A program made the translations under genes and the position numbers. Source: Eubacteriales bacterium (GTDB lineage: Bacteria; Bacillota; Clostridia; Christensenellales; UBA1242). From it: a stretch of DNA of 64,000 nt. Where the stretch lies: positions 131,510-195,509 of the forward strand of contig JAHAXB010000016.1 of NCBI GenBank assembly GCA_018384735.1, read 5' to 3'. Position 1 is the stretch's first letter. Each line of letters starts with the position of its first letter. The notes under the pieces are model-generated. The model searched no databases and was not told the DNA's origin. It saw only the letters and a list, made by a program, of their open reading frames with translations. This document shows positions 5,345-27,708 of this stretch, one piece after another.

Positions 5345-5380
5345 GATCAAAAAAGTTTTTCGTTTTTTTTGTTTCAAATA

Positions 5381-5409: not shown

Positions 5410-5415
5410 ATAAGT

Positions 5416-6828: not shown

Positions 6829-6845
6829 TTCTTGCACAGGGTTAT

Positions 6846-6875
6846 AAAAAAGGACGATATTATCGTCCTTTTTTT
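6846..6875 (+). terminator. Rho-independent terminator after lipoprotein gene B
   Basis: A-run, GGACGATA / TATCGTCC inverted repeat (6852-6868), then a T7 run (6869-6875). Confidence 0.8.
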
Positions 6876-6964: not shown

Positions 6965-6989
6965 AAAAAGGGCGACCACCGCCCTTTTG
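6965..6989 (-). terminator. Rho-independent (bidirectional) terminator after the 20.6-kb gene
   Basis: GGGCG-ACCAC-CGCCC hairpin at 6970-6984. An A5 run lies on the left (a T-run for the minus strand) and TTTTGTGTTT on the right. Sits 9 nt beyond the stop at 6993. Confidence 0.7.
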
Positions 6990-6992: not shown

Positions 6993-9900
6993 TTAAGCAT
7001 CTTGCTTTACCAACCAACCGTAAGCATTACCTGTGTCATATGCCGGCCCTTTCGGGTTATTACCGCCGGTCGGAGACACGGTACCATTGTAGCTATTCCA
7101 GAAGTTACTTTGGAGATAGGTATTGTTAACAACCGTCATGCCGGTGGTCTCCCCTGTATATGCGGCCGACGACGGGTCGGGGTTACAAATCCAGTCAACC
7201 AAACCATTACGCGCCCAGTATTTCATGTAATTATGGTAACCCGCAAAACCATTCGATTCCGAATAACTGGATTTAATGATTTTACATGCGGCTTCAAAGT
7301 AATCATACGGAATATACAATTGTGCATACTCATTATAACCGGCACTACCGTATTTTTCGGTTTCATCCAATATCAAACCATAACGACCAGTACCGTAAGT
7401 CTTAGACCATTTGTCATATTCTTTTTCCGGGTCCGGCGCAAACTTATTATCTCTAATTGCCTTCTTAGGCACATTTGTACGTGTTATCTTACGGATGACA
7501 TAACGTTCGTTGTATTCGAAACGGTCTTTGTACGGACGCTTGTAATCCGCATCCATACCCGGATTAGCAGTACCCGGCCAACCATATTCACCAGCACTAA
7601 CATTAGCTTTTTCAAAGGTCGGGACTTCATTATCAATTTGACCGTCTGCGCCACGGTGTTGTTCACCCGAAGATTTAATTTTCGGGAAAATCGTAGTGCT
7701 GATTTTACGTTTATAAATCGGTGCGGTAATGGCCTGTTGTGCCGCGGTGGTACCAATCTTGTTCAAATATTCCACGTTGTTTTCGTATTTTTCCATACGC
7801 TTCCATACCGCGAAGGCTTCAATGGTCAACCAGCCGTCGGTCGAGGTAATGGTTTCGCCCGTTTCCGCGTCTTCGTAATCACCACGCGCAATTTGATAAG
7901 CTTGACTGTACGCATACACGTTAATCCATTCGCAATAATCACGGAAAGTAATGAACGCGTATTCTTCACCATTAACTATGGTAATCCAGTTCATACGATA
8001 TTCCACCAAATCGTTGGTACGTTTTTCCGGCGTAACATCATTGTATTGGATTTCCACACGGATGCTTTGGGTCAAGACCCATTGGAAATCATGAGCATCA
8101 AACTTGCTCTTACCGTCAATCTTTAATTTTTCGTCCAATTTTTGTTGCATGTAGTAGATATAGTGGTTCAAGCGGAAATATTTGGTTTCTGTTTCACTGA
8201 CTTTATAATTAAAACCAGTTTTTCCATTCTTATCTTGTGACCAGTCAACATATTGAGCGGTACTGGTACCCGCACGCACCAACATCATGTACGCCATGTG
8301 ATCCGAGCTGATTTCCATGGCTTCCGCCAATTCATTTTCAGTTGCAACTTGTTGTAAGAATATTTTTGAATTCTTTTTAGCAAGAAGAGGCAACTTGCCG
8401 AACGGATTATTGAATAAACTAGTTTCCGGCAAACCATCGGTTACCTTGTCAGGATCAATCATATCATATTTCGATGGGTTATTCAACCTGGTAAACAATT
8501 GGTAATCCGCGTAGGTGCTATACCAAACGCCGTCCACGTATTGTGCGCTCTTGACGATTTCGGTATATTCGGCGGTGGTAAATTTGTCGCCGTAGAAGCC
8601 GGATTGTACGGTTTTACCTTCCGAATTTTCGGCCATCGCCGTCCAGTCATCCGCCAAGGTGTAACCCGAACCGCGGGTTGTGTAACTTGATTTTTGCGCG
8701 TAACCGGCGGTCAACGATTTCAACATCGCGTGGGCTTTGATTTGGTCGAATTCTTCCGCGGTGAAACCTTGTGCGCGCCACCACAATGCCTCTTCCAAGT
8801 AGTCAGATTTGTTTTCGGTGGCTTCAGTTTCCGTGCTGGTCATCGTGCGGGCGCCCGCCACAATTTGACGCACAATCTTATAGAAGCCGTCATACGTATC
8901 GACCGTGTTTACGGTGTTGCTGTTCACGATGCTAATTTCCTTGGTCGTATAGAAATCCGGCACCGCGTAGTAACCGTACAAGGTGTAATCCGCCGAAATG
9001 CTCGGAGCGCTTGCATAGGTCGTTACTTGACCGTTCGCGTCGGTCGAACTCCAGAACACGTATTCGTTAATGGCGGCCGCCTTGGTAATCGGGAAAGCTT
9101 CCAATTGGTAAAGCGCGAGGATATCTTTACCCGCTTCGAACGAGTCGGACGAACCACCGGAAGCGATATTCGCGGTACCAAACATTTTGTTTTCGTCGAC
9201 ATCAACGTACAGCGCCGCACCTTCGTTGCTGTTAGCGCGCAAATCGATGGTCACACTGGTGCCCGTCATATACATTTTGTAAATTGCGCCGTCGCCGTTT
9301 TCGAAATCAGGAGCGAAGTTGACATTTTGTTCGTTAATTTCTTGCACGCCACCACGCAATTGGTAAACACCGGCCGGTTCGCCACCATCCATTTTGCCGT
9401 TCGCATTTTTATCAGAGTACCAATAACCATTGTCTGTCATTTCTTGCGTATTAGCATCGGTATAAATAGCACGGATGGCGCCTTTTTCGGTCAAGTTCAA
9501 GATTTGACCTTCGGTGGTTGCCGCCAAGGCGTAATTCATGTCGTAACCGCCTTCGTCTTTGACGTAATGCACTTTGCCGAAGTCTTTTTGGGCTTGGCTC
9601 CAGTTATATTGAGTACCACGCAAATCAAAGATGTAGTCTTCCGCTGTCGCGTATTTCGTATCGTTACCAACTTTCGCATTCAACAATTCCCACAAACTTC
9701 CGCCCAAGTTGACCATCTCTTTGTATTTTTGCAAAGTCAAACCTTTGGCCGCGCGAGCATTCGCAAATTCAGTGCGCGCGTCCCAACTGTAAGTTTCGCC
9801 GTAACGAATGACGCCATCATCATCCAAACGGAGGCTGCTGCCACCAACGGCGCTCATCCAGTTATTGGATTTTTCTTCTGCGGTATTTCCGTCAACCCAA

Positions 9901-12900
9901 TTCATTTCCAAACCACCAATCGTGCTGATACGTGCCGCGCCACCGCCCAAGTGACCACCTTTAACCCATTGCAATTCCTCTTCTTCGACGTATTTGGTAT
10001 CACGCTCCATCAAGTCGATAAATTCTGGAATGGTGATTTTTTGATCCAAGTCGCGGCAAACATAAATGTAGTCGACATAGGAAGCCTTGACAGCGGTTCC
10101 TCTGAATTTTTCGCCTTTCAAACTGGAGAAGTTATTCGGGACAGCGTAATTGTAACTAGATGAAGTGTAAGTTTTACCAAAAATGTGGCGCATATAGTAA
10201 ACATATTGTGCAAATTTCAAATTCCAGTCGCCCACCGTAGCTGATCTATCGGCAACCCCGACCACATAGTTCAAATAAATTTGTAACGGGTCGACATTGG
10301 AGAATTTATCCGAATTCGACAATTCGCCATTGTTAATTAAGCCAACAAAGTCCGCTTGGTTCGTAATCACCACGTTACTCTTGCTTTCGTTCATTTGGAC
10401 GAACAAGCCATAAGTCGGGTCAACGAACAACATATCAATTAAGTCCTTACTGCAATTGAAACCATAAGTATTATAGAAGGCATCTTCAGACATGGATTTC
10501 AGCGCATTATAAGCTTCCGCGCTGATATTGTCCATATTCAACTTCGCATATTTCTTCAACAGCAAGTAATCTTCATATTGTTGCCAAGTGAATTTACGGT
10601 TTTGTTCCCCGTTAATGTATTTTCCCTGATTTGAATTGACATTTTGATCTTGATAAGTGAAGAATTCAATGGCTTGGTTATAACGTTCCAAACGGTAATC
10701 GCTCAAATGATTTTTAAATTCGCCGTCATTGGTGCTGGTACCAATCGCGCTATACTTCAAGTAGCTTGCATAGTTGTCCAACGTGGTTGCGCCACCTTTG
10801 TCGTCGAAGATACCATTATCGGCCAACCAATATTTCAAGAACGCCACGCCATCTTTACCTTCCACGGTGCCTTCTTTATAAACCTCAACCCAAACATCTT
10901 GACCATTAATTTTTTCGATACGGTTTTCAACTGGCAAGCTGCGGACCCAAGATTCCAATTTTTCAACACGTTCCGGCAAACTGGCTCGTTTCAAGGTGTT
11001 TTCCAAATAATCATAGTATTCATCCATAGTCATGGATTGAACTTTCCAAGTGTCAATATCTGTCCTAATACCGAAGAAGTTATCGTAAATCACAACGCCG
11101 TCCTTGCTCCAAGTATAACCCGGCGTTTCAAAATTTTCCGGCTTGACACGTCCCGAAGCGTTTTTCGGGAAGTTAACCGTCAAAATTTGGGTACGGACAC
11201 CGGTATGATCCGCAAATGGATCGCCACCTTCTGCCGCATTCATACCACGACCGACGATACGACCGAAGTAGAAACCAACGTTAGCTGCTTCCTTGCTAAC
11301 CTGTACTGAGTCACCGCGTACATTAGTGTTTGTATTTTTCGCGTTATTAATGTAACCATAGTTACCGTTCAAGCCGACCACACCACCAATCGTGTGTTGC
11401 AATTTACTGTCGGTAGCGTTCAAGACATTGACGTTAATCGTAATATCTTCAATTGAACCACTGTTGTTCGTTTGATAGAAACCGTCGTTACAACCGGCGA
11501 TACCACCAACCGACATACCCCAGAAATATTGTTCGGATAAATTATCTTCGGTCGAATCGTTAATACGGTAAACATACGAGGAATTAACCGAGCTGGTTAC
11601 GACCCAAGTTCTTAAGTTCATCGCTTCATAGACCGTACCATTTGCGGCTACTTCACCCGCAATCTTACCTAAGTTAATACCAACGATACCACCCAAGTAA
11701 TATTTACCACTTAACGATGCCAACTTAGTGACCGATGGTTTGCGTAATTCAATGGTTTCATCCATAATACCAATCAAACCACCCGCTACACTGCCGGTAA
11801 TGTTAGTCAACGCACCATTCAAATGACTCATGACGATGGTGTTATGGTAATACTTACCTTCACCGTGTTTATCAACCGCGTCGTTAATTACCGAACCATT
11901 ACGTGCCTTTAAGAACCAACTGGCTTCACTGTTATCACTATTGAGTGTTTCAACATTGATAACATTGTTATCTAGGTCGTGCGCAACCAAAGTACGATTA
12001 AAGTTACGCTTGTGGATAATTTCTCTCGCAATACCGTCATCTGAGATTTCAACGGTACGATAATTGTTCGGGTTGGAAGTTACGAAACCGAAGATACCAC
12101 CCGCCGTGCTGAAGCCTTGTTCCAATGAGCCATAAATACCTTCATGGTCGTCAGGGTTAATTATATTCTGACTTGCAATTTTTGCATACAAGGTCTGTTG
12201 TACGTATTCCACACCCGAACTGAATTTGTTAGCACCTGGGTTAGTTTCTTGGTTCGTGTTATAGGTTGCCATAACCGACACATTACTATTCAAATTGTAA
12301 TTTTCAACTTTCAATGGTTGGTCTTTCTTGTCTTGGAAAACCACCGTCAAGCCTGCAAAGCCACCGACGATGTTCGCACCTTTAATGGTACCCGTGCTGG
12401 TAACATTAACATCGACGAAACTGGTGTTAATGGCGATACCCGCAATACCACCAACATAACGGGCGGTAGCGTTAATGCCTTCGATTTCAAAATTGATGTT
12501 ACGGATGGTTGCGTATTCAGTCTTACCAAACAAGCCCATGGTTGCCAAATCGTTCGTAACTGTATTCAAGCTGATACCACTCATGGTTAAGCCGTTACCT
12601 TCTAAAGTACCAGTATAAATAATCTTGTAGGTGTCTTTAATACCGTTCAATGTAATATTATTAACCAAACGTAAGTGGTTATTTTGACGGTTCTTTTCAA
12701 TGTCGGTTACTGCTCCATTGGTATTGCGATCGCTTTCGGTTGCGGTTGCAGTTGCCACATAAGTGTAATTATTGAATTGTTTTTCGTTCCAAACAAGGTA
12801 CGGGTTCTTCGCGGTACCTAAATTGTACAGGTATGGTGACCAGGTCATGGTCGTCTTACGGTAACTAACCGCAATATCGTTCGCAGCACGCAGCATCGGG

Positions 12901-15900
12901 CCAGCTTCGGTCATCATCCAGGTTGTATTACTGTCGGAAACTTCCCAGGTCGGGTCAAGTTCGGACGAAATACCCATGGAGAAACCATCAAAGTTCTTAA
13001 TGTCAGCATAGCGTTTGGATTCTTTATTGGTCAAACGGCGAATAACTTCGGACCAGCCGTCACCCTTACCGTACAATCTGTCGCCGACACAAATCAAGTT
13101 CGACAAACCGCTAACATTGACCGCGCCAGCCGTTGTTGCTTTGCCATTCACAACCACAAACGATTTATAGTAGTCTGAAGTATTACCACTGGTAATAATG
13201 TTATTATTTTCAATACAGTTGGAGATCACACCGCCCTGTGCGTTTTCGTAAACGAAACCACCCGCGTTACCTTCGGTACCAGTTTTCCAAATGACCATGT
13301 TTACCAAGCAGTTATTGATGACGCCGGTATTAACATGAGCGAAACCACCTAACGAGTTACGGACGGTACGTACCACACCCGCCGAAGAAATGAAGTTCGG
13401 ATTATTTTTACGGTTGACCGAATAACCCATTGCATAGGATTGTTGGACCGTGCCATCATTTTGACCAACGAAGCCACCCAACAAGCTAACACCTTTGTTC
13501 TCGCCTAAGTTATTGGCGTTAGCGTTATTGATCACATTACCATCGCGGTAATAAGACGAAGTAATTACGCCTTGGTTGAAACCAACGAAACCACCAACAA
13601 TTGAATTCATGACATTCTTTTCGTCAATGCCACCAACATCACCACGTTGTTCTGGTCCCCACAATTCAATATCAATTAAGACACGGCTGTTGGTAATCAT
13701 GTAAAGGTTAGTACCAACCAAACCACCGACAGTCACATCCATTTGATCGTTGTTAACTTTAACGAACAATTTCGCCGGCGATACGCTTTCCGTACCGGAA
13801 ATAATCATTGCGCTGTAATTATCATATTTCGCCACATTCGTACGGTCAGGCGTAATCCATTTTTTAACGTTATGGTAAATATCATATTGAATATCCCAAT
13901 TGCCGTCAGCATCCTTTACCAAGTTACCGTTAGTATCCATGGTAATACGGTAACCTTCGGCAGTATAAACATCGGTAACACGGGTCTGACCATTTTCATT
14001 GGTTTCGATATCAAAGAAATAACCGGAATCAATATCAAACAAGTGACCATCTTTGTTGAATGGTAAATCCGTTTTGAAATTCTTACCCGTCAATGGGTTT
14101 TTGACCTTGGTCAAGCCAGGTTGTTCGAATTGCCAACGTGGGACCACCGCACAGTTCGTGATGATACCTTCGTTGGTACCCGCCAACATACCAATATTCA
14201 CGCTGTCTTTCGTGTACTCACTTAAATCAAGTTCCAACAAAGTTACCGGATTACTTGATGTTCCGTGTTCAAAGACAATTTGAACGTTTTTAATCACCGA
14301 GTCGGCCGGAACATTGGTGTACATACCAATATTGGTTGGTTGATCACTCAAATCAAAGCCACCAGCATTGCCCGCCGCGTCAAAGATAATTTTGAAGTTA
14401 TTGCCATCAAGCGTGGTATTTTTCGGGAACGCAACCGGTTTCCAACGGCCATCTTTCAAATTCAACTTTTCAATTTCACTAATCTTGATGTCTTCCATTA
14501 AGGTATAATCCACACCGGAAACCAAGTTAGCCAACACATGAGCATTGTCTTTGGTAACGTAAACCTTCGCACGGTCATCCATCGCATCGTTCGAGGTTTT
14601 ATCCGTGGTGCGAATTTCAATATTGCTGGTAATACGTTGTGCATCCACCACATTCGCATAAGCGGTTACGGCTTGTGCCCCGTCAACATAGTCTTTGTTA
14701 AAGTTGGTAACACCATAAGCGATGTTGGCCGAAACCTGCATAACGGTGGTTGACGCTTCGCCGGTTTCACGTACCAATGAAGTCAAGCCATTGTCATAAT
14801 AAATTGAATAGTTAACCGAGAAGCCAGCTTGAGGCGTATTGTTCAATACCAAGTAGTAGTAACCATCAGCAATCGAAACACGATAATCGTTAATTTCATC
14901 TTCCAAGCGTTTAATGGCGCCGGTAACGTATTCCAAGTCGTCGGGTAAATAATAATCGGTCGTCAACGGTCCACTGATAATATCGGGGGTGAAACGGAAT
15001 TCCACCGCACTTTCGTTCAAGGTTACTTCGCTGACCGCTTCCCCGTCAATCTTCAATTTCCAACCTTTGATTTCAAACAAGACGGGCTTCACTTGTAACG
15101 AGTAATAATACCAAACCTGTTCGCCATCTTTCGTGATGGTATACGGAATACGGATTTCAATATAGCCGTTCAAGTTGCGAGCCGCTGCGCGCAAGGTTAC
15201 ACCGATAGTAACATGATGGCGGTCGCTCGATTGAACATTGTAGGCAAAGAATTCGTATTCATTCTTGCCACGTTTCAAACCGCCATTGAAAACATCAATG
15301 TATTCATAGTAGAAGATAACTTCAGGATTGTTAACACTCAACGGGTAATCGCGCGAAGTACCAATTGATTGCATGTTCTTATTGCCCGCACCCGTGGTCG
15401 TGTTATCCCAACCGACGAAGTGGCTAGCTTCACCTTGGAGGGTCGAAACTTGAATTTGAAGATTGATAATGGTATCCGTGGCTGGATTAACACTGCCCAC
15501 AGTCGGTACACCGTTAGCATAGCCAACACAAATATTTCCCGTGATGTAGTTCAACGCGGTAATGTCCGCTATTTTTTGGATTAAGATTTGATTGCTTTGT
15601 GCTACCAAACGTACATTTTCGCCACCTTGAACATTTTCAACCTTAAAGGTTAAAGTTTGGTTACGGATTTTGTTATTTAAAGCAGTTTCAAAGCTTTGCA
15701 ATTTCAAGTTGGCGATGTTGCGCAGGCTAACTTCGTTTGAGTAATTAGCAACCACATGTAATTCCAAAACCGCACCGTTATCATTCAAAGCCAAGTAGTT
15801 ATTTTCCGCAGCGGTTAAATAGAAACCTTCTACCGTAAAGATTGACGGCGTAATGTAATATTTGAAGCAATGTGTCGGTTTTACGGCATTTTCCTCTTCT

Positions 15901-18900: not shown

Positions 18901-21900
18901 TAGTTTGGCACCAGGGTTACAGTCGCGCCATTAGCCACTGCACAATCAACACTCACATTGCTGTCGGTAACGTTTTGGAACGGTAAGCCCAAATAGTAAT
19001 CTTCGGTCGTACCAATGGCTTGGTAATGTTGCGCCACAGTATTTACCACAGTCGTCGGGTTAGCTTCATAATATTTGATATAACTTTCTACCACATTTAA
19101 CGGGTTATTTTCCACATCAATCAAATAAGGCGAACAACGTAAAGCTGAACCCGCTACGCCGTAATCAATCGCGGCGTCAAGTTTCAAATATTGTTTACCA
19201 TCACCTTGGTCAATTTTTTCGATTTCAAATAAGTCACCGCGACTATTGTTCAAACGTTCGTTAAATTGGTGAATGTAATAGGTAATATTTTGACCATCAT
19301 AAACGATAGAATTATTGTATTTAACAGTCGCACGATAAGCCACATTTTCAGTTTCATTCAATCCAGAAAGGTTCAACGGTTGTGCCGGTACATAGGTTTC
19401 AATGCCGGTAACTTCAAACAAAACCGGTTGAATGGTCAAGACGAACGCTGTGCTAGAACCAGCATAGAATTTGAAAACTAAATCTTTCGCAAGCAAATTA
19501 TTAACCGAATCGGGAACTAACAATTCCAAAGTAAGGACATTATCAGCAAAGGTTGCTTTCCAACCACGTTCCGCCAAAAGCGCGTCGTCGAAAATCAAAT
19601 CCGACATATCCATACTCAAAGTCTTGTTCAAATCGATATTGTAACTAACTTTGGTTCCCACAGCCTGTACTTCGGTGCGAGTACGGGGACCATTTGGCAT
19701 CGGTGGATATTGACTGTCACTACCACGACCAAAGATTGAATACCAGAAATCGGCATTCACACGAACACAGAGATTACTGGTTGCTTCGTTCTTGGCTACC
19801 AAGTGCGGTACCCCATCGGTGTAATCCAAATAGGCCGCGACGCGCAAATCGCCCGAATACAAATTATGATTATAATCGCGTACGATTTTTTCCGCATCAA
19901 CACCTTGGAATGCGGCAATGAAATTTTCGATGCGTGCTCGGTTAGCAGCGTTCTTACTGTAATTTTCGCCCAAAATCGGGTCGAAAATTAAATCTTCCGG
20001 ACGATCAGGTTTCACGCCGTAATACATGAAGATGTTACGGTCATCGCTATTTTGGTCTTTCACAGTTAAATCTTCTACCGTAAACCAAGCCGGTACAATG
20101 TTCAAAATATAAACTGGGTTAACATCGTTGGCGGTTTCAAAGATACCAATACGAATTGGATGATTAAACAAGTTTTCATCGTCAGACAAATAAACCCTGA
20201 CACAACGTTGAACACCATAATCATTATTTGCCGGATCGACCGACCATGAATGATTATCCGGGATGTAATTGTCAAGCCAGTTTTCCTTGTCCCCTACCAT
20301 ACCACCGCTAATTTTGATTACTTGGTATTCGTGGTTAACATTGTAGACCACGGTATAACCGATGGTTTGGGCTTTAGTATTTTCCGGGGTGCCATCGTAC
20401 ATTTCGTAGCGATAACTATTTTGCAATACCAAATCACAGTTTGCGGTATTGGCAATCGTCGGAATACCGTCTTCAAAGTTAACACCAACCAAGGTCGTGA
20501 CGTAGTTAGCATCGTCAATCAACGACACCAAACTTGAACTATTCAATTCATCACGGAAATTTTTCATGTATGCCTTGAAATTAAAGTTGGCAATAATTGG
20601 ATCCGTGCTGGTACTATGAGTCGATTTGTAATCCAAGTGATTTTTTAATTTTTGCAACCAAAGCGCGTCATTTTGGTTAATCAGAACCGGATTTTCGTCA
20701 ATATGATCAGCCAATAAGATTTGTTCCACGGTAAAGTAAGCCGGGATAATATTCATCTTGTACATTAACTCGCCGTTTTGGTTATAGGCCATAATTACCA
20801 AGGTTTTGTTAAATAAAGCCGTAGTCGTGTTCAAGGTTACAGTAATGGTATTATCCTTAGTATTGATCGTCGCATTCCAATCAAAACTCTTTTTCCAAAC
20901 ATAGGTATTATCCGAACGAACTTCGTATTTATCTAATTTAGAATCATAACGCGTATTCGGCAAAGCCACATTATAACGCACCTTAGTACCAATTGCTTGT
21001 GAAAGCGTACGTACACGACCATTCGGTGCCGGTTCCAAATCCACACCGGAAGGACCGTTGTTTTCAGTTTCAGCACCAAAAGTTTGCACCGGAATATAGG
21101 TCGTAATACGGTTACCCGTACGACTTAATGTCGGCACACCCTTTACATATTCAACACAGGCACTAACCATCAAGTAACTTACCGCTGTAACCGGATTCGA
21201 CAAATCTGCACGGGTCAATTCGCGCGTATTGGGATTGAAATCAAAGTTCAAAATACCACTGTCGTTTTGTACGCGTTTGAAAGATAAAATCGTGTTATTG
21301 CCCAAGTTTTCCTGCGCTGCCAAAAGTTCGGCATTGAAAGTTTGCAACGCAGTATTAACCGCATTACCTTCGGCACAACTGACATCCCCCGCTTCTACCG
21401 TAACTACGGTTGGGGTCGATACCGCCACCAATGGGCGTTCCGGATTATCTTTTAATTTGAATTCATCAAAAGTGAAATAAACCGGAACAATCGTTAATTC
21501 CATTTGTGGTTGCGCCGCCGCACTGGACATCACATTAATCACAATCGGTCCCGCATTAACCAAATCCTTGTAAGCCTGTTCACGAGCGGACGTAGGACTG
21601 ATATTGTTTTCCAAGCTAACCGTAATCGCAACGTCGTAACCATTTTGGGTTTTTACCGCCGGTTTCATAGTTACGGTCCAATAAGTTCCGTAATAAGCGT
21701 TAGCAGCATTATTCACCTTGTTTAAGGACAATTTTGTTGCGTGCAAAGCATCCCAGTCATGGAAAGTATAAGTTGTTGTCGTACCAACCGCCAGGTATTC
21801 TTTATGTTTAACAATGGCATCTGGTTGTTTGATTTCGTAAGCAAAGGTTTGAGCATAACGGCAATCAGCATTGCGCGCTAAGGTCGGCACACCATTAACA

Positions 21901-24900
21901 TAGGTATACGAAACATTGACCGTGATTTCTCCCGGCACCGAATCCACATCGCAATAGACCATGCTTGAATTCAACAAAGCACGATTAAATTCCGCCATCT
22001 TTTCGTTCAAACTACTACTCGACATACTGGTATTGTACTTGAACGCCGCGCGGTATTGTAATTTCAACAAATCATCGTCAGAAGCCACTTGAATTAATGT
22101 TTCACGGTGGTCAACAATTTCCAACTTATCAAATTCAAAGTAAACCGGCACAATCACAACGCTCAAATACGGATTGACATAATCACCCGGACGACTGTAC
22201 GGAATACGGACTTCAATTGTTTCACCGATTGCACGCGCATCGGCTTTCACGCGCACCGACAGACTATTATTACTGATGGTTACTTCTGCAAAATCAGATT
22301 TAATGGTAGCAGTCGCGGAACTAACACCGTTTAAGGTGAAACCTGCACGGTTCATTGTACAGTCAGTTGGCATCGCAATATCATAGGTTTTGGTCGTGCC
22401 CAAAGCTTGATATTGTACCTGGGTCATGGTGCAAACCGCATAATCCTCGGTTTCATCATCAGGGTCAACTTCAAAACTATCACGGTAACGTGCATTCAAG
22501 GTCATGGTTTGGGTAATCGCCTTGGCGTTGTCTTCACCCTTAATTGAGACTTCGATTTTGAAAGCCGTATCATTTGGCACACGGTAAGTAATTTGCGAAT
22601 CACTTACCAAACGTGTGCGGAAATAGTAAACACCCGTCCATTTGTAACCTTCCAAACGAGACCAGGATGAAACCATTTTGGGTTTGCCCGCACCAGCCAA
22701 GTACGGTTGATAGAAACCTTCGTCTTCGTTGTAAATCATTTGAGTAAAACCAATTGAATACGTTACACGGTTAGTAATCGGCTTACCGTTTAAATCAGTA
22801 CCGATTTGTACGTCTTTACTGTAATAACCATCTTTGGCGGTACCAATCGTAAAGTCGACAATATTCGCATAATACGGCGTTGGATAAACTTTCAGTAAAC
22901 CACCAACCGTTCCACTATCAAGGTAGATAATCTTAGAATCGGTTTGATTCGATGCCAAAGTCAATGCTGTTTTATTACCTTCAACACTGTTGGTTTCCGC
23001 GAAGTGCGCAATGGTCATGTTTCGAACGCCGTCTTTAGCGATATTAAACGCAGCCGAATCCTCAACCGGTGCCTTGATTTTCGCCAATGGTGAATTGGCT
23101 AAGTTTTCCGCAACATACAAGCGTGAACCGGAAATGTTATAGAACGGGTCAACATCTGGAGCGATAATCACAACCGAAACATCAATTTGCAAGAAATACA
23201 GCGCATAGAATTCTGGACTTTGCGGTTCATTACCCGGGTTTAAGCATTTTAATTTGAATTCCAATTTTGCTTTACCACCCGCCAAATTGATGTAAGCTAC
23301 ATTCGCACCGTCAGTAAACAAGCCATAGTAAACGCTTTCGTATTTAAAGGTGAAATTTAACAAATCTGGACTCCATACACGATCCGAACGCACGGTAATA
23401 TCGTAGGTCGCGGTTGTTGTACCATCCAAAGTAATTTCACTCTGGGTAATATCCAAATATTTAACACCACCTTTGACTTCAACTTTAACCTTAGCGGTCA
23501 CCGCATCCATCGTAAATTCATATTTGGTGTTAGTATCTGGTTCAAATTTAATCGACGGCACAAAAGTGTAAATACCACCCGAATAATCCACACTACTGGT
23601 ATTTGCTTTAACTTGCTCGGTAAAATCAGCCGAATTCATTGTCCAAAGCGACGGCAAATCAGCGTCAAACCAGAAACGCTTACCGCGTTGTACGGTAACC
23701 AAATCATAGTCACTGGTATATTCATCCGGCGCCAAATTTTTACGCGCTACTACCCCGTTACTATTTTCGCTGACCAATTTAATATCAAAGTTTTCAATTC
23801 CGTTAACAACGTAGAATGTTGCAGTATATCCATGCACAGTTAATTGCCAATAAACCGTATGGTTACTGTTACTATACATCGGTTCATTTGTATCACTAGT
23901 AAATTTCAAGGAACTTAAACGCAAAGCCAAACGGTTACGCGGTGCATCAGCAGCACTTTGCAATGGCAATGGCTTACCTTGCGCATCACCGATTTGTGCA
24001 CCATCAACATACTTCTTTACATAAACAAAATCAGTAAGGTCAAGATCATCTATTTCTTCAAAAATTCTCCAGCCGAGCACTGTATACAAATCGTCAAAAT
24101 AATAAACGTTGGCTTCAATATTGGAAGCATATTCATTGCCCGTAGTATAAGTTAAAGCAGCAACTGTCGACTCATAACCTTTAGCCGGCATAATCCAATT
24201 GTAACCACCTAAATTATTGCGCTTACCACTGTTAGCATCGTGCGGTAAATTACGATTTTTCTCGGCAATTGCCGCTTCAATCGCATCATGCGTACCAACA
24301 TAAAGACTGATAATTTTGCTTTGCTCTAAATCCGGCATCACATATTCGTAACCGCCTTCGGTTTTTACATAACGCAAACTGTCGCGCGGATATACCACTA
24401 ATGCGTATTGCGCCATGCTATTAGCATTCGAAACCGGTTTCACGGTAACACTATGCGCCGTCGCCGAAATCAATTCTGCAGTAGCAATGCCGCCAATATT
24501 AACCAAGTTGTCCGCCACGACTTCGTAACCATTGGCGTCACATCGGGCATATTTAATTGGCAACACTTCGAATTTACCATTTTTCCATTGTGCATAAGTA
24601 ATACCAAGTTTGGTGTTACGTGCATCAGCCGCACTTAAAACGTTCACGACACTGCCATCGTTGACGTAGGTACTATCATCCGAAAATAACTGCAACAGAC
24701 CATCCGACGTGCCACTATCCGCGACAAAATCACTGCCAGAAAGTTTCAAGCTGTTTGGTAAAATTTTGTTAATTTTAACTTCCGTCGTCAATGTGGCACC
24801 GGCAAGATAATCAAAAGTGAACGCTTTTTCATTTTGTATACCGTTTTTTCCGTCCAAATCCACATTAGTAAAATCATAACGTTTGTAGATCTTGAAACCA

Positions 24901-27635
24901 ATTCGGCAAGCATTATTTGTTAAATATTTAGCGGTAATTTTATATTGATTAAATTCGCCGTAACTATCATCAACCAAAACATTTTCGTCGCCCTGTACCA
25001 ATTCAATGTGCAAATATTGGTTATTGGTAATTTCACAAAGTTTCAAGTCGGTTAAATTCAAGGTCAAAATGGCCGAATCTTCAATTCCTTTCAATTGAAT
25101 TGAACTCGGCAAGGTTACCCCGCCAACCGGATCAACCACGATAAAGTACACCGTTCTTCGGGTTTCATGAGTGCCGAAAACATCCTGGCTATAGGCGCGC
25201 AAAACCACAGTACATTCGTACAAACCTTCCGGCAATTGTGTCGCATCAAAATTACGCGTATTCGTCGCTACCGGCGTACTGGTGCCGTACGGCACAATGG
25301 ATTCAAATTCAGCATAGGCGCCAACATTAACACTGGGGGTAATCACATCAAATTGATAATCAAAACCACGACGCACATAAGCCACACGCGCGTAATCATA
25401 ACTGGTGCCATAGTCATTAGAGGTTGCTTGGTAGATTTTACCGTTACTACCACTGACAACAGGCATCGACAACGATTCTACCGTTGGATAAACGCGAATA
25501 TTGAAAGTAGTTTCAACACCGTTAGGATAACTAACCGTAAACGGATAGTCTTTATAGTATTCAATTTGATCCATATCATCGGCGGTAATGCAGTATTCAA
25601 TATAATGGTAAGCATCCGTAACGCCTTCGTATTCAAATGATTTAACTTCAGTACTCGAAATTTCAAATGGCAATTCGTTAATATTATTCAAAACTTTACC
25701 AGTGTTCCAATGTTGACTGTAACGACCACTGGACAAAGCCCCTTTGACTTGTATTTTGGCGGTATTAAAGGTTTTTGTATTAGTATCATAAACCAAAGCC
25801 ACACCAACGCTATCTTCTTCAAATTTGGTTAAATCAACCGCTTCACCATCTTTGATTGCTTTAACTTCAAATTGATCAATCGCATAAGTACGCTCCAACT
25901 TAATATCACAGGTGGCATAAACATCGTCACCAATTGACAATTGGTTAACGCTCTTAATACGCAAAGTCAACGACGAAATACGGTCACTAATCAAAGTTTC
26001 CGCATTACGTGTACGCTTAAAAGCAAGCGCAAATTTGTTCAAATAATTAACATGTGGATTTTTTTCCGAAAGCGCAATCCATTCGCCGTCACTCTCCGAC
26101 CAGTAACCGATCTTCAAGATACTAAATAATTTCCAGCTCGGATCAACCGTGCCATCAGCATTCACGCGTCCGTCCACGCGGTAAGTTCCGGTATACTCTC
26201 CACTTTCGTCACTGTCTTCAACCAATAATTCAAATTCAACATCGGCATCCATATTGACGGATTTGCCATTGGCAGTATTCAAAGCAAACACATCATAGTA
26301 ATTACTAATCTTTGAGCCACTCTCAAGCGTACCTTCATAGAAGAATGCATCCAGATATTCTTCGTTATTAGCGTTGCGTTTATTTGTTTTCGCTTTTAAA
26401 TTGAAAGATACACCATCGCCAACTTCCGCATTTGTATAAAATTCGTTACGCACACGCAAGCGGAAAGTATCAACAATTTGCACGTTGGCATCAGCTTCGT
26501 CACTAAATTTAATGTCAGCTTCTCCGTTTTGACCTTTAATAACCGGATAAGCCATAACCATGATAATGGCTTCACCCAAATCTTCCCTAGACGACAAAGA
26601 ACGTCGGCAACCACCCAACGAAACAACTTGAACCAATTTGTCATCACTAGGCTTAACACTGACGCCATAACCAGAAACGGTTGGCATATTATCCAAGCTA
26701 AAATCAAAGTCAGCAGTTGAGCGTGTACCTTCACGGTTAGCAATTAAATCCCAAACATTTTCTTCGCCGTTGGTCGTTTCAGCTTTATAGGCATTGGTAT
26801 CAATGATAATTTTTTCTGCTTTCGGGAAAACATAGAACGGAACATCAACCCATTCACCTTTTTCCAACATATCCGGCAAGGTCACTTGCAAAGCGATGTA
26901 TTGATCAACACAGTCGGCGTTCTCACTAACGGTTAAAAAACCGTTTTCATCCAAAGTCACGCCCTTGTAATTTTGCCCCTCTTTCAAACGGTAAATTACC
27001 GGGAATTGGTTAGGCGCAAAAAGGCTTTCCTGAACATCAGCCTTGTGTGCATAAAATTTGTATTTACTCAAAAAATCCGATGACTTCAAATCAACCGGTT
27101 CACTACCCTCACGTACGCCAAAGTGGGATTGTTTACCATCACGGGCCGATTTACCAATATCCATATATTTTGCCACCATGGTAACGGTAACCCCGACCGC
27201 CACACTTTGACCGCCCGAAGCAGTATTGAATATTAATGAACCTTGTTTTAAACCATTTTTACCGGTAACTTTGAAAACATTGACACCAGTGTTACTGGCT
27301 TCTAATTCAGAACCGACGCGTTCAACCTTAACCGCGGTTTTAACCGAACTGTCATCCACAAAAACACGGTGGTCAGCTGAAGACGGAATACCACCAACCC
27401 GCACCGTCACATAGTCATAAGACTCTTCAGTATCCGCAATGGTCAAACCAGTATCTGTACCATCGGACACAACTTCAATATTTAAATCAATACTTTCTTT
27501 ATCCACGGAAACCGCAATTCCCGCATAAACATCACTTTGGCGTCCTGAATTTTTGAAGGCAAAAACAACACCAATAACGGCGGCAATCGCAATGATGCTA
27601 ACAACGAGTAAACTGGCTAAACCGCGTTTTTTCAA
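6993..27635 (-). CDS. Giant N-terminally membrane-anchored surface protein (about 6,880 aa): N-terminal region, 11 tandem ~220-270-aa modules, GLUG-like beta-helix core, aromatic-rich C-terminal region
   Basis: Uninterrupted ORF 6993-27665. The likely start is TTG 27635 (MKKRGLASLLVVSIIAIAAVIGVVFAF), preceded by GGGGGG 7 nt upstream. Single N-terminal TM, no LPXTG motif, no C-terminal TM. Repeat structure read from the translation. Confidence 0.9.
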   Translation of the reverse strand: MKKRGLASLLVVSIIAIAAVIGVVFAFKNSGRQSDVYAGIAVSVDKESIDLNIEVVSDGTDTGLTIADTEESYDYVTVRVGGIPSSADHRVFVDDSSVKTAVKVERVGSELEASNTGVNVFKVTGKNGLKQGSLIFNTASGGQSVAVGVTVTMVAKYMDIGKSARDGKQSHFGVREGSEPVDLKSSDFLSKYKFYAHKADVQESLFAPNQFPVIYRLKEGQNYKGVTLDENGFLTVSENADCVDQYIALQVTLPDMLEKGEWVDVPFYVFPKAEKIIIDTNAYKAETTNGEENVWDLIANREGTRSTADFDFSLDNMPTVSGYGVSVKPSDDKLVQVVSLGGCRRSLSSREDLGEAIIMVMAYPVIKGQNGEADIKFSDEADANVQIVDTFRLRVRNEFYTNAEVGDGVSFNLKAKTNKRNANNEEYLDAFFYEGTLESGSKISNYYDVFALNTANGKSVNMDADVEFELLVEDSDESGEYTGTYRVDGRVNADGTVDPSWKLFSILKIGYWSESDGEWIALSEKNPHVNYLNKFALAFKRTRNAETLISDRISSLTLRIKSVNQLSIGDDVYATCDIKLERTYAIDQFEVKAIKDGEAVDLTKFEEDSVGVALVYDTNTKTFNTAKIQVKGALSSGRYSQHWNTGKVLNNINELPFEISSTEVKSFEYEGVTDAYHYIEYCITADDMDQIEYYKDYPFTVSYPNGVETTFNIRVYPTVESLSMPVVSGSNGKIYQATSNDYGTSYDYARVAYVRRGFDYQFDVITPSVNVGAYAEFESIVPYGTSTPVATNTRNFDATQLPEGLYECTVVLRAYSQDVFGTHETRRTVYFIVVDPVGGVTLPSSIQLKGIEDSAILTLNLTDLKLCEITNNQYLHIELVQGDENVLVDDSYGEFNQYKITAKYLTNNACRIGFKIYKRYDFTNVDLDGKNGIQNEKAFTFDYLAGATLTTEVKINKILPNSLKLSGSDFVADSGTSDGLLQLFSDDSTYVNDGSVVNVLSAADARNTKLGITYAQWKNGKFEVLPIKYARCDANGYEVVADNLVNIGGIATAELISATAHSVTVKPVSNANSMAQYALVVYPRDSLRYVKTEGGYEYVMPDLEQSKIISLYVGTHDAIEAAIAEKNRNLPHDANSGKRNNLGGYNWIMPAKGYESTVAALTYTTGNEYASNIEANVYYFDDLYTVLGWRIFEEIDDLDLTDFVYVKKYVDGAQIGDAQGKPLPLQSAADAPRNRLALRLSSLKFTSDTNEPMYSNSNHTVYWQLTVHGYTATFYVVNGIENFDIKLVSENSNGVVARKNLAPDEYTSDYDLVTVQRGKRFWFDADLPSLWTMNSADFTEQVKANTSSVDYSGGIYTFVPSIKFEPDTNTKYEFTMDAVTAKVKVEVKGGVKYLDITQSEITLDGTTTATYDITVRSDRVWSPDLLNFTFKYESVYYGLFTDGANVAYINLAGGKAKLEFKLKCLNPGNEPQSPEFYALYFLQIDVSVVIIAPDVDPFYNISGSRLYVAENLANSPLAKIKAPVEDSAAFNIAKDGVRNMTIAHFAETNSVEGNKTALTLASNQTDSKIIYLDSGTVGGLLKVYPTPYYANIVDFTIGTAKDGYYSKDVQIGTDLNGKPITNRVTYSIGFTQMIYNEDEGFYQPYLAGAGKPKMVSSWSRLEGYKWTGVYYFRTRLVSDSQITYRVPNDTAFKIEVSIKGEDNAKAITQTMTLNARYRDSFEVDPDDETEDYAVCTMTQVQYQALGTTKTYDIAMPTDCTMNRAGFTLNGVSSATATIKSDFAEVTISNNSLSVRVKADARAIGETIEVRIPYSRPGDYVNPYLSVVIVPVYFEFDKLEIVDHRETLIQVASDDDLLKLQYRAAFKYNTSMSSSSLNEKMAEFNRALLNSSMVYCDVDSVPGEITVNVSYTYVNGVPTLARNADCRYAQTFAYEIKQPDAIVKHKEYLAVGTTTTYTFHDWDALHATKLSLNKVNNAANAYYGTYWTVTMKPAVKTQNGYDVAITVSLENNISPTSAREQAYKDLVNAGPIVINVMSSAAAQPQMELTIVPVYFTFDEFKLKDNPERPLVAVSTPTVVTVEAGDVSCAEGNAVNTALQTFNAELLAAQENLGNNTILSFKRVQNDSGILNFDFNPNTRELTRADLSNPVTAVSYLMVSACVEYVKGVPTLSRTGNRITTYIPVQTFGAETENNGPSGVDLEPAPNGRVRTLSQAIGTKVRYNVALPNTRYDSKLDKYEVRSDNTYVWKKSFDWNATINTKDNTITVTLNTTTALFNKTLVIMAYNQNGELMYKMNIIPAYFTVEQILLADHIDENPVLINQNDALWLQKLKNHLDYKSTHSTSTDPIIANFNFKAYMKNFRDELNSSSLVSLIDDANYVTTLVGVNFEDGIPTIANTANCDLVLQNSYRYEMYDGTPENTKAQTIGYTVVYNVNHEYQVIKISGGMVGDKENWLDNYIPDNHSWSVDPANNDYGVQRCVRVYLSDDENLFNHPIRIGIFETANDVNPVYILNIVPAWFTVEDLTVKDQNSDDRNIFMYYGVKPDRPEDLIFDPILGENYSKNAANRARIENFIAAFQGVDAEKIVRDYNHNLYSGDLRVAAYLDYTDGVPHLVAKNEATSNLCVRVNADFWYSIFGRGSDSQYPPMPNGPRTRTEVQAVGTKVSYNIDLNKTLSMDMSDLIFDDALLAERGWKATFADNVLTLELLVPDSVNNLLAKDLVFKFYAGSSTAFVLTIQPVLFEVTGIETYVPAQPLNLSGLNETENVAYRATVKYNNSIVYDGQNITYYIHQFNERLNNSRGDLFEIEKIDQGDGKQYLKLDAAIDYGVAGSALRCSPYLIDVENNPLNVVESYIKYYEANPTTVVNTVAQHYQAIGTTEDYYLGLPFQNVTDSNVSVDCAVANGATVTLVPNYDDNGAMALRVTLAADSNLIGQPVTIVINYQEGSTNRKLTMTIQPVWFVVEGFEVVNHPERHMWLITSATKEETVDTLSYAVRAHYDMDADAALMSAIEEQIVAFNTKLAQSTEQGGWAELLETETIGGQYLTVRAAVDYDNGVAAIEAITEDNLENVVYDAFEYARYSDKIEATGMAYPNVPRSRTIEVTIGYQVDYTLDIPDLGNLSNDLLALYYNDNQAYADDDTKLKYYANGSGAWSISVNGNNLHIELNPDVTLANSELKVFIYKNSSLRPGVNGHPDSYDKDRVAFVLTIHPVLFKVTSFALTGYNNDEIHVNGIGEFTKNLSRGTGANFVPVYEYANSLVDTNVTINGTTKTLGALMNEFTIEFMSSKYVSKTRYTGTDSKTYHFQVATSVEYNAFVGTPKLSDDPEYRIWKNFKVIDDAQSNATVREEYQALASTKTYYFVDSVLTDSMNPVLSGTGYTAVWNRDDSATSDVNKNYLTVTLTEEADVNTPIVITFGNCTLKIHPVYYEVLGFEPVNHPERAAWIIEPETTDDLQYRMITTDLSYLNGNTYADLRDAIIADVDAKNAQLSNVLEISLSDSQFIIVDAAVNYNRVTGLPEFDTIGKDKRNVVESVIKYRVWSAAQVPNPEHPSVMGKVAANQVIGKTKSYTLRNVRGQISYPYIWVEGAGNLKVTFEKSADGATMTYEKATVMVDTARNILKVQLPADISIKNTTIRVYVPYLTTTNGKEVWYSYCIEITPLLFELKGWTITGVNTDADGYPVTYAENGKDVGLYVSHYRNDCVLLTQQSDHITFFRYQALINRSADASLDAEIGRAVAALEAEVVNYIDIDNPYSYISIDGLNLIRNCAATQESNTELTLSTYIVYKKGVPELAHTSTTRVSNQVLVSTGYNIDDWENNVKDKILNASDNSAVQAIGTAATYAVEISGAGTIFTKEIQVVERGTGDAIYIPGERANLITITVDDEFDENVIFTVELAPVLGLCDHLIEICIPYAEEENAVKPTHCFKYYITPSIFTVEGFYLTAAENNYLALNDNGAVLELHVVANYSNEVSLRNIANLKLQSFETALNNKIRNQTLTFKVENVQGGENVRLVAQSNQILIQKIADITALNYITGNICVGYANGVPTVGSVNPATDTIINLQIQVSTLQGEASHFVGWDNTTTGAGNKNMQSIGTSRDYPLSVNNPEVIFYYEYIDVFNGGLKRGKNEYEFFAYNVQSSDRHHVTIGVTLRAAARNLNGYIEIRIPYTITKDGEQVWYYYSLQVKPVLFEIKGWKLKIDGEAVSEVTLNESAVEFRFTPDIISGPLTTDYYLPDDLEYVTGAIKRLEDEINDYRVSIADGYYYLVLNNTPQAGFSVNYSIYYDNGLTSLVRETGEASTTVMQVSANIAYGVTNFNKDYVDGAQAVTAYANVVDAQRITSNIEIRTTDKTSNDAMDDRAKVYVTKDNAHVLANLVSGVDYTLMEDIKISEIEKLNLKDGRWKPVAFPKNTTLDGNNFKIIFDAAGNAGGFDLSDQPTNIGMYTNVPADSVIKNVQIVFEHGTSSNPVTLLELDLSEYTKDSVNIGMLAGTNEGIITNCAVVPRWQFEQPGLTKVKNPLTGKNFKTDLPFNKDGHLFDIDSGYFFDIETNENGQTRVTDVYTAEGYRITMDTNGNLVKDADGNWDIQYDIYHNVKKWITPDRTNVAKYDNYSAMIISGTESVSPAKLFVKVNNDQMDVTVGGLVGTNLYMITNSRVLIDIELWGPEQRGDVGGIDEKNVMNSIVGGFVGFNQGVITSSYYRDGNVINNANANNLGENKGVSLLGGFVGQNDGTVQQSYAMGYSVNRKNNPNFISSAGVVRTVRNSLGGFAHVNTGVINNCLVNMVIWKTGTEGNAGGFVYENAQGGVISNCIENNNIITSGNTSDYYKSFVVVNGKATTAGAVNVSGLSNLICVGDRLYGKGDGWSEVIRRLTNKESKRYADIKNFDGFSMGISSELDPTWEVSDSNTTWMMTEAGPMLRAANDIAVSYRKTTMTWSPYLYNLGTAKNPYLVWNEKQFNNYTYVATATATESDRNTNGAVTDIEKNRQNNHLRLVNNITLNGIKDTYKIIYTGTLEGNGLTMSGISLNTVTNDLATMGLFGKTEYATIRNINFEIEGINATARYVGGIAGIAINTSFVDVNVTSTGTIKGANIVGGFAGLTVVFQDKKDQPLKVENYNLNSNVSVMATYNTNQETNPGANKFSSGVEYVQQTLYAKIASQNIINPDDHEGIYGSLEQGFSTAGGIFGFVTSNPNNYRTVEISDDGIAREIIHKRNFNRTLVAHDLDNNVINVETLNSDNSEASWFLKARNGSVINDAVDKHGEGKYYHNTIVMSHLNGALTNITGSVAGGLIGIMDETIELRKPSVTKLASLSGKYYLGGIVGINLGKIAGEVAANGTVYEAMNLRTWVVTSSVNSSYVYRINDSTEDNLSEQYFWGMSVGGIAGCNDGFYQTNNSGSIEDITINVNVLNATDSKLQHTIGGVVGLNGNYGYINNAKNTNTNVRGDSVQVSKEAANVGFYFGRIVGRGMNAAEGGDPFADHTGVRTQILTVNFPKNASGRVKPENFETPGYTWSKDGVVIYDNFFGIRTDIDTWKVQSMTMDEYYDYLENTLKRASLPERVEKLESWVRSLPVENRIEKINGQDVWVEVYKEGTVEGKDGVAFLKYWLADNGIFDDKGGATTLDNYASYLKYSAIGTSTNDGEFKNHLSDYRLERYNQAIEFFTYQDQNVNSNQGKYINGEQNRKFTWQQYEDYLLLKKYAKLNMDNISAEAYNALKSMSEDAFYNTYGFNCSKDLIDMLFVDPTYGLFVQMNESKSNVVITNQADFVGLINNGELSNSDKFSNVDPLQIYLNYVVGVADRSATVGDWNLKFAQYVYYMRHIFGKTYTSSSYNYAVPNNFSSLKGEKFRGTAVKASYVDYIYVCRDLDQKITIPEFIDLMERDTKYVEEEELQWVKGGHLGGGAARISTIGGLEMNWVDGNTAEEKSNNWMSAVGGSSLRLDDDGVIRYGETYSWDARTEFANARAAKGLTLQKYKEMVNLGGSLWELLNAKVGNDTKYATAEDYIFDLRGTQYNWSQAQKDFGKVHYVKDEGGYDMNYALAATTEGQILNLTEKGAIRAIYTDANTQEMTDNGYWYSDKNANGKMDGGEPAGVYQLRGGVQEINEQNVNFAPDFENGDGAIYKMYMTGTSVTIDLRANSNEGAALYVDVDENKMFGTANIASGGSSDSFEAGKDILALYQLEAFPITKAAAINEYVFWSSTDANGQVTTYASAPSISADYTLYGYYAVPDFYTTKEISIVNSNTVNTVDTYDGFYKIVRQIVAGARTMTSTETEATENKSDYLEEALWWRAQGFTAEEFDQIKAHAMLKSLTAGYAQKSSYTTRGSGYTLADDWTAMAENSEGKTVQSGFYGDKFTTAEYTEIVKSAQYVDGVWYSTYADYQLFTRLNNPSKYDMIDPDKVTDGLPETSLFNNPFGKLPLLAKKNSKIFLQQVATENELAEAMEISSDHMAYMMLVRAGTSTAQYVDWSQDKNGKTGFNYKVSETETKYFRLNHYIYYMQQKLDEKLKIDGKSKFDAHDFQWVLTQSIRVEIQYNDVTPEKRTNDLVEYRMNWITIVNGEEYAFITFRDYCEWINVYAYSQAYQIARGDYEDAETGETITSTDGWLTIEAFAVWKRMEKYENNVEYLNKIGTTAAQQAITAPIYKRKISTTIFPKIKSSGEQHRGADGQIDNEVPTFEKANVSAGEYGWPGTANPGMDADYKRPYKDRFEYNERYVIRKITRTNVPKKAIRDNKFAPDPEKEYDKWSKTYGTGRYGLILDETEKYGSAGYNEYAQLYIPYDYFEAACKIIKSSYSESNGFAGYHNYMKYWARNGLVDWICNPDPSSAAYTGETTGMTVVNNTYLQSNFWNSYNGTVSPTGGNNPKGPAYDTGNAYGWLVKQDA

Positions 27636-27679
27636 ATGTTTTTCCCCCCAATGTTTTTCTTTCAATCTAGTATGTATAA

Positions 27680-27708
27680 ATTATATTTTTTATATGAAAA
27701 ATCGTCAA
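27680..27708 (-). promoter_or_regulatory. Consensus-like sigma-70 promoter of the 20.6-kb gene (TTGACG-17-TATAAT)
   Basis: The complement of 27703-27708 is TTGACG and the complement of 27680-27685 is TATAAT, with a 17-nt spacer. A ~45-nt leader carries a G6 Shine-Dalgarno. Confidence 0.65.

Follow-up and report, generated by a model that had tools for sequence, protein, structure and literature searches.

What kind of protein needs a single bacterial gene of 20.6 kb, and what might it do at the surface of an uncultured gut bacterium? The question is raised by a 64,000-nt stretch of DNA (hereafter the window) from an Eubacteriales bacterium of the Christensenellales (assembly GCA_018384735.1, contig JAHAXB010000016.1, positions 131,510 to 195,509 of the forward strand), in which one minus-strand gene, at window positions 6993..27635 (-), encodes a product of ~6,880 aa and ~750 kDa, referred to below as the giant protein. 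We suggest that it is a lineage-specific, N-terminally tethered, adhesin-like fibre of the cell envelope, a predicted function that we regard as probable, albeit with limited assurance.

As judged from sequence comparisons, the gene is real and intact, and neither an assembly artefact nor a pseudogene. The maximal open reading frame (ORF; 6993..27665 (-)) begins with TTG and stays open over 6,890 codons, with its sole stop codon at the end; at ~42% GC, where ~5% of random codons are stops, such a run would not be expected by chance. A GGGGGG Shine-Dalgarno (SD) sequence, read from the DNA at 27644..27649 (-), lies 8 nt before a second TTG at 27635, whereas the first TTG at 27665 has no SD sequence and stands only ~15 nt past the -10 box; the likely start is therefore TTG 27635, and the probable coding sequence comprises 6,880 codons plus the stop (residue numbers below are those of the maximal ORF). 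Upstream, TTGACG-17-TATAAT (27680..27708 (-)) is a promoter-like site of the sigma-70 type with 11 of 12 consensus positions matched, to be read as a motif match only, because shuffles of the region yield about one such site too. An intrinsic-terminator-like hairpin with a T-run (6966..6988 (-); 10-bp stem with 5 GC pairs) follows 5 nt past the stop codon. The original prediction of one intact frame for a ~6,880-aa product is thus borne out by the ORF list and by a translation with one stop, and its promoter, SD and terminator motifs hold as sequence signals, by which the gene is putatively expressed.

Two circumstances might point to collapsed or chimeric repeats, or to a decaying pseudogene: the gene is long, and same-species short-read assemblies break at it (a related contig, from SRR12960526, stops just beside it). 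We give this explanation practically no weight. Repeat collapse is of no concern since the repeated modules described below are only ~20% identical to one another, and collinear open-frame orthologues in at least nine independent assemblies, together with three full-length database orthologues (6,535–6,970 aa), strongly support the earlier view that the gene has not decayed. The window's own giant protein is present in NCBI nr; a look-up with ORF-derived proteins for a near-identical independent assembly returned no exact record.

How widely the family is distributed was assessed by a locus scan of one genome per GTDB species, with an alignment of the conserved core as the query, which gave 22 loci. 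In nine of these (L006, L007, L008, L012, L013, L014, L015, L017 and L018) the frame is open for 5,775–5,948 aa, that is, up to the edge of the DNA fetched per locus, and the translations are collinear, module by module, with window residues ~1,000–6,870 at 35–54% identity. When 1.84 billion representative proteins were searched exhaustively with HMMER, 14 matches resulted, all orthologues or orthologue fragments; among them are full-length proteins of 6,926, 6,535 and 6,970 aa that share the N-terminus of the window protein. Word-indexed searches, run against 5.8 billion proteins, produced 10 and 1 matches. Distant relatives share 25–29% identity and are 3,000–4,300 aa long, so that length across lineages has a two-fold spread (3,000 to 6,970 aa). 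All carriers are uncultured metagenome-assembled genomes (MAGs), with no cultured member among the records found. Those of the close clade are labelled 'Clostridia bacterium' or 'Eubacteriales' and derive from the guts of ruminants, deer, buffalo, mice and human cohorts. Two that are labelled Prevotella have Clostridia-like neighbour genes and are probably misbinned. The MAGs of the distant relatives are labelled Bacillota or Christensenellaceae, and we take their isolate names to point to the termite gut. Among the records seen, close orthologues are either unnamed or called 'hypothetical protein'.

All relatives detected have the giant gene directly upstream of recD2, and close ones have it upstream of pheS as well; the survey of orthologues and neighbourhoods that had been proposed earlier thus revealed both collinearity and a constant chromosomal place. 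In the same genomes RecD2 is 73–86% and PheS 77–90% identical, compared with 35–54% for the giant protein. From its fixed place, and from an identity so far below that of RecD2 and PheS, we infer that the gene is vertically inherited and diverges fast, as is usual for exposed surface proteins. A single copy in one place by recD2, from termite-gut to mammalian-gut lineages, resembles a core gene rather than an accessory one, and could also be expected of a structural envelope component (a wall-spanning scaffold, a sheath or S-layer-like element, or a cell–cell connector) that binds no external ligand. A conserved upstream membrane protein (o525, see below), as its possible partner, and a largely non-repetitive sequence, conserved uniformly along its full length, would fit such a role. 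However, SLH and other wall-binding domains are missing, divergence is much faster than in the neighbouring housekeeping genes, and the spread in length is unusual for a stoichiometric part, all of which make a purely structural role rather improbable.

The most regular part of the giant protein is an array of 11 tandem modules (aa 1838–4382; 14520..22154 (-)), each of 214–272 aa and typically ~230 aa, beginning at aa 1838, 2059, 2306, 2523, 2745, 2964, 3217, 3431, 3666, 3938 and 4192. Pairwise identity among them is ~20%, and each is composed of two mutually unrelated sub-domains, marked by I-x-P-V-x-F-x-V and Q-A-I-G-T-x3-Y. A hidden Markov model (HMM) of the module detects 10 full copies, a truncated 11th and a half-copy at aa 1681–1835 (HMM positions 102–213, iE 3e-8; hhalign probability 59%). 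The latter defines a half-module (aa 1681–1837; 22155..22625 (-)) that corresponds to the second sub-domain and precedes the array, whose 11 units, as first proposed from the translation alone, were recovered by both motif and HMM. BLASTP self-comparison detected no repeats in the giant protein, the modules being too diverged for it. Full-length orthologues have 10–11 modules and distant relatives just one, located at the core boundary, which suggests an old amplification specific to the clade of 6.5–7-kaa proteins. No known stalk family (Big, FN3, Rib, G5, SHIRT, CNA_B etc.) was matched in Pfam at E <= 0.05 beyond noise-level tiles, and the module profile found nothing in the PDB. Nor did it find anything in the database of 5.8e9 proteins at E <= 1e-3, not even its parent family, candidate selection probably being limiting in this search.

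C-terminal to the array, a core of ~1,100 aa (aa 4383–5500; 11166..14519 (-)) with ~12 GG[FILV]xG repeats was identified, from profile matches and a predicted structure, as a putative right-handed beta-helix of the GLUG type, like the N-terminal domain of streptococcal IgA1 proteases. The GLUG family (PF07581; gathering score 20.5) is matched with 28.2 bits at aa 5375–5450 and 21.9 bits at aa 4630–4720, and further core segments score below threshold (13.5–17 bits). These matches are visible only with short pieces, as 1,200-aa segments gave none and 130-aa tiles three (best E 1.5e-4); short motif families such as GLUG therefore escape detection when very long proteins are scanned whole. An AlphaFold2 (AF2) model built from an 11-sequence alignment has long runs of short strands at a mean predicted local distance difference test (pLDDT) score of 64, with a poorly modelled linker at aa ~4860–4950. 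When compared by Foldseek with the PDB, the model ranks streptococcal and Gemella IgA1 proteases (7uvl, 6xja, 6xjb and 7uvk) and 3n6z of Bacteroides ovatus first, followed by generic right-handed beta-helices. Probabilities for 3n6z and the IgA1 protease (IgA1P) chains are 0.97–1.00, but with E values of 9e-3 or worse, a query-normalised TM-score (TMq) of 0.13–0.17 and a model pLDDT of 64. Against a viral library, Foldseek returned GLUG-like beta-helices with E values down to 7e-10, among them a phage 'putative IgA1 protease'. Peptidase_M26_N stayed below its gathering score of 27.7 (14.1 bits, E 0.015–0.027, covering the last 46 of 250 profile positions), and the core profile found nothing significant in the PDB. 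What had been described as a beta-helix-like core is therefore supported by AF2, Foldseek and the GLUG matches, and can now be named instead of being left wholly anonymous.

Within the core, the close clade has an insert of ~110 aa (aa ~4520–4630; window ~13776–14108) that is absent from distant relatives. Its D/G/Y/N-rich, hairpin-like repeats (…DGHLFDIDSGYFFDIETNENGQ…DTNGNLVKDADGNWDIQYD…) recall those that bind walls or glucans; no family was matched by the insert.

The remaining 1,390 aa (aa 5501–6890; 6996..11165 (-)) form an aromatic-rich, mixed alpha/beta, non-repetitive C-terminal region, in agreement with the ~1,400 aa foreseen earlier: W, Y and F together make up 14.0% of residues here, against 9.0–11.1% in the other regions. 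It contains the conserved blocks WVKxGH (aa 5900–5905), YLEEALWW, WKRMEKYENN (aa 6621–6630), FEYNERY and LYIPYDYF, is collinear and conserved across 11 orthologues, and its last ~600 aa are among the better-conserved stretches of the protein. No relatives outside the orthogroup were found among the 1.84 billion representative proteins by exhaustive HMMER, and the C-terminal profile had no match in the PDB. A recurring motif, [LFIM]-T-x-x-E-[YF], was considered as a sign of domain repeats and rejected, since block-wise hhalign comparisons gave probabilities <7% and no internal repeats. Separately, most orthologues have an extra 100–150 aa near giant aa ~6680–6745 (window ~7440–7640) that the window protein and L007 lack; in the carriers (L006, L008, L012, L013, L017, L011, L024, P0013 and P0014) it includes a Cys/His motif, C-D-x2-C-G-G ... 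C-x4-5-H-A-A-Y, which looks like a metal-binding knuckle.

This conserved end bears on the idea that the protein is a contact-dependent effector or polymorphic toxin, a long filament whose C-terminal toxin domain would be delivered into neighbouring cells. Size and a beta-helical segment do recall CdiA/Rhs-type delivery proteins, a likeness suggested by the original prediction and not by any tool result. However, the C-terminus is collinear and conserved, unlike a hypervariable tip that can be swapped; Pfam yielded no match to LXG, Rhs, PT-TG or toxin families; and downstream of the gene lies no small same-strand immunity-type gene, only the terminator and then lipoprotein genes on the opposite strand. 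We therefore consider delivery of a toxin very improbable.

A surface-tethered enzyme resembling the Zmp/IgA1 proteases is more probable, although we think it unlikely. In such a protein an anchor and spacers would be followed by a GLUG beta-helix that gates or presents the substrate, and by a C-terminus with a catalytic domain of a new type, active on proteins or glycans. The top Foldseek matches (IgA1 proteases and 3n6z), the GLUG matches and the weak Peptidase_M26_N match (14 bits) all agree with this, as do the many invariant E, D and H residues in the C-terminal alignment (e.g. E5897 and H5905), and a hidden catalytic domain has a precedent in IgA1P (PMC7695701). On the other hand, HExxH occurs nowhere in the giant protein, neither Peptidase_M26_C nor any other catalytic Pfam or NCBIfam family is matched even in 130-aa tiles, IgA1P chains in the PDB give no sequence or profile match, and similar beta-helices are found in purely adhesive proteins too.

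At the N-terminus, a hydrophobic segment following KKR (aa 16–37, LASLLVVSIIAIAAVIGVVFAF; 27555..27620 (-)) is the sole segment above the hydropathy threshold, as expected from the one N-terminal helix predicted earlier, and may be either a signal-anchor or a long signal peptide. It is kept in the orthologues, and in its place distant relatives have lipobox signal peptides, with a lipobox Cys at the equivalent position (L-x-G-C, F-x-G-C or V-G-C in P0003, P0005, P0006 and P0007). The lipobox pattern [LVI]-[ASTVI]-[GAS]-C was not found in the window protein and its close orthologues, which read ...GVVFAFKNS with no Cys. The equivalent Cys suggests that N-terminal membrane tethering is the ancestral state of the family, and in the window clade tethering may likewise be inferred. 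The region that follows (aa 38–1680; 22626..27554 (-)) is non-repetitive, without a detectable domain: it had no Pfam, NCBIfam or PHROG match even in 130-aa tiles, no internal repeats in profile–profile comparison (best hhalign probability 43%), and no module sub-domains detectable by hhalign save the half-module at aa 1681. Conservation at aa ~1150–1850 extends to distant relatives.

HExxH, LPXTG (LPx[TSA]G) and CxxC are absent from all 6,890 aa, and there is no C-terminal hydrophobic segment; together with the Pfam and NCBIfam results, this confirms that LPXTG, a C-terminal anchor and a recognisable catalytic motif are lacking, as had been stated from the translation. Pfam, NCBIfam and PHROGs gave nothing or noise on 1,200-aa segments, 130-aa tiles added GLUG only, and single-sequence PDB searches returned nothing significant. 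The segment-wise domain search and structure prediction that had been advised thus found no characterised adhesin family and recognised the putative GLUG beta-helix alone.

We propose that the giant protein would be exported by Sec, with its N-terminus held in the cytoplasmic membrane by an uncleaved signal-anchor here, as it would be by a lipid anchor in the distant relatives. The first ~4,400 residues would serve as an extender through the wall, projecting outward probably >100 nm, and the beta-helix together with the 1,390-aa C-terminal head would form the distal working end, binding a ligand in the gut. Candidate ligands are a host or dietary glycan, mucus or another microbe, and the head may also act on its ligand. 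The arrangement would follow the logic of fibrillar adhesins in a reversed orientation, with the anchor at the N-terminus and the tip at the C-terminus.

Several observations weigh against this scheme. A conserved V/I-F/Y-A|F just past the hydrophobic stretch resembles a signal-peptidase I site, and the protein could be released by cleavage at V-F-A|F; no wall-binding module (LPXTG, SLH, CWB or LysM) was found that would hold it. The term 'anchored' in the original prediction is therefore supported in part, by the hydrophobic N-terminus and by the lipobox of the distant relatives, and left in doubt by this potential cleavage site. Some 5,700 of 6,880 residues have no recognisable domain, so that the terms 'stalk' and 'head' reflect position and repetition, not fold. 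The AF2 model of the C-terminal region (pLDDT 43.7) is unusable, which renders any Foldseek search with it meaningless. Finally, the N- and C-terminal regions are non-repetitive, unlike classical repeat-built adhesins, which gives room for enzymatic or structural roles.

It may also be that several of these features belong together, although we can put this forward only tentatively, as something less probable than the adhesin-like fibre itself. In this case the ~3,000 non-repetitive residues at aa 38–1680 and aa 5501–6890, together with the two-part module, would be new folds in an undescribed class of tethered giant envelope proteins, a core trait of an uncultured gut lineage of Clostridia/Christensenellales-like bacteria. 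Such a protein would have been fixed by recD2 before the split between termite-gut and mammalian-gut lineages, and would have grown from ~3,500 to ~6,900 aa through 11-fold module amplification and acquisition of a new head. If so, the head might bind or catalyse in a new way, by analogy with the once-orphan domains of the IgA1 proteases. The adhesin-like fibre remains the reading that we prefer.

The gene is embedded in a chromosomal context: the window holds pheS, recD2/yrrC, a uvrA-like gene, a sigma factor, a SpoU methylase, a mini-RNase III and 23S and 5S rRNA genes. The giant gene of the close clade is followed by one or two lipoprotein genes on the opposite strand, then recD2 and pheS, and that of distant relatives is followed directly by recD2. 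The two putative lipoprotein ORFs of the window (4262-5344 and 5416-6828, both (+)) have signal-peptide-like N-termini with a Cys past the hydrophobic stretch, and the second has PENPGN-type repeats; in most close loci the interval from the giant gene to recD2 contains one or two weakly similar lipoprotein copies (24–32% identity). On the other side, o525 (27725-29302 (-)) is a membrane protein of 525 aa with an N-terminal transmembrane (TM) segment, followed by repetitive Gly/Asn/Val-rich sequence, and with no Pfam match. L004 has a homologue (48% identity) immediately upstream of its giant gene, as do the distant loci L003 and L022 (~25–27%), and o525 is a possible functional partner of the giant protein. 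Further upstream are two tandem Rce1-like (CPBP) intramembrane proteases and a divergently oriented gene of the metallo-beta-lactamase (MBL) fold (29704-32155). The string of MBL, two Rce1-like proteases, tadA and the 525-aa membrane protein recurs in L001, L003 and L004, where the MBL-fold gene has weak precomputed Apyc1-like matches; the flanks retrieved for L005, which shares its contig with L027, lack the Rce1-like and MBL genes, and that of L022 is too short to be informative.

A second giant ORF, of 2,847 aa (32166-40709 (-)), combines a hydrophobic N-terminal segment with a TM segment and basic tail at the C-terminus; it resembles neither the first giant nor, credibly, any Pfam family (one match below threshold, E 0.0016). 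Homologues occur in L004 (45% identity) and L003 (23% identity). Fifteen nt upstream of it lies an orphan gene for a VirD4/TraG-type coupling protein (40725-42722 (-)), a pair that is also present in two other samples (L028 and L029). A link of the giant gene to conjugation was considered and rejected, there being no other type IV secretion system or relaxase genes in the window and the conserved neighbours being housekeeping genes. An 894-aa ORF (45149-47833 (+)) that has a signal-like segment at its N-terminus, a TM segment at its C-terminus and no Pfam match encodes an uncharacterised envelope protein. The 23S and 5S rRNA genes (56633-59738 (-)) may belong to an unlinked rRNA operon: within 4.2 kb upstream of the 23S gene no 16S gene was found, and GtrA-like, GT2 and PMT_2 genes stand there instead. 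An ORF inside the 23S gene (58955-59575 (+)) is spurious.

How, then, does the giant protein compare with known systems? Like the streptococcal M26 proteases (IgA1 protease ZmpA, ZmpB and ZmpC), which are large Gram-positive surface proteins tethered via their N-terminal end, it has a putative GLUG-type beta-helix and, beyond it, a long C-terminal part for which structural relatives are lacking; in IgA1P this part comprises middle and C-terminal domains of ~900 aa, to which nothing similar was known at the time their structure was determined (PMC7695701). It differs in having no HExxH/E motif, no Peptidase_M26_C match, no G5 domains and no N-terminal LPXTG, in being 3.5 times longer with a beta-helix region that is ~4 times longer and interrupted, and in its 11-module stalk, which has no counterpart there. 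BACOVA_03286 (PDB 3n6z, a 'putative IgA1 protease' of B. ovatus) shares the GLUG repeat and is the best target-normalised fold match (TMt 0.50, probability 1.00), but is a stand-alone domain of 339 aa with 13% identity and an E value of 1.2e-2.

Giants of other kinds have been described from the same habitat. In MAGs of gut Clostridia, predicted surface proteins of 10,000–30,000 aa are reported, for which binding to host or prey has been proposed, and which contain recognisable repeats (RCC1, Listeria-Bacteroides repeat, YG repeat, dockerin and leucine-rich repeat; West-Roberts et al., bioRxiv 10.1101/2023.11.21.568195). The window protein is smaller and has no recognisable domain beyond its GLUG motifs. 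Hence its size, which had been called rare and usual for adhesins or contact-dependent effectors, is unexceptional for gut Clostridia, and with a conserved C-terminus the effector half of that expectation is disfavoured.

As for named classes, the giant protein is not an M26 protease (no HExxH and no Peptidase_M26_C match), a sortase-anchored adhesin (no LPx[TSA]G and no C-terminal hydrophobic segment), an RTX adhesin (no HemolysinCabind match, no type I secretion system (T1SS) genes in the window, and a Clostridia-type host) or a polymorphic toxin (a conserved C-terminus, with a terminator and opposite-strand lipoprotein genes downstream), and can be classified only as a GLUG-motif-containing protein. 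More than 80% of its sequence (about five-sixths) is without a match in Pfam, NCBIfam, PHROG or the PDB, and the C-terminal ~1,200–1,390 aa belong to the orthogroup only, which makes it a target for structure-based domain discovery and for learning what this uncultured gut lineage binds, given that giant surface proteins often mediate the attachment of gut bacteria to hosts, food particles and each other.

The finding alone overturns nothing, the architecture being that expected of a large adhesin-like protein. Compared with the giant repeat-built adhesins (RTX MpIBP and LapA; Gram-positive Ebh, serine-rich repeat proteins (SRRPs) and fibrillar adhesins), the giant protein has no RTX repeats, T1SS signal, LPXTG, serine-rich repeats or known stalk domain in Pfam, and its repeats are few and old (~20% identity), with most of its length non-repetitive, whereas theirs are many and near-identical. 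It would share with them a cell-proximal anchor, an extender of tandem modules and distal, non-repeat binding domains; RTX adhesins, with an N-terminal anchor and a C-terminal tip, even have the same orientation, and the SRRP of L. reuteri (5nxk), a low-probability Foldseek match to the core, has a beta-helical binding region. What is unusual here is how little of the sequence is recognisable and how narrow the family is, confined as it is to one small, uncultured group of gut Clostridia. The family is new but its architecture known, with anchor, stalk, beta-helix and distal head arranged in a way familiar from giant bacterial adhesin-like proteins.

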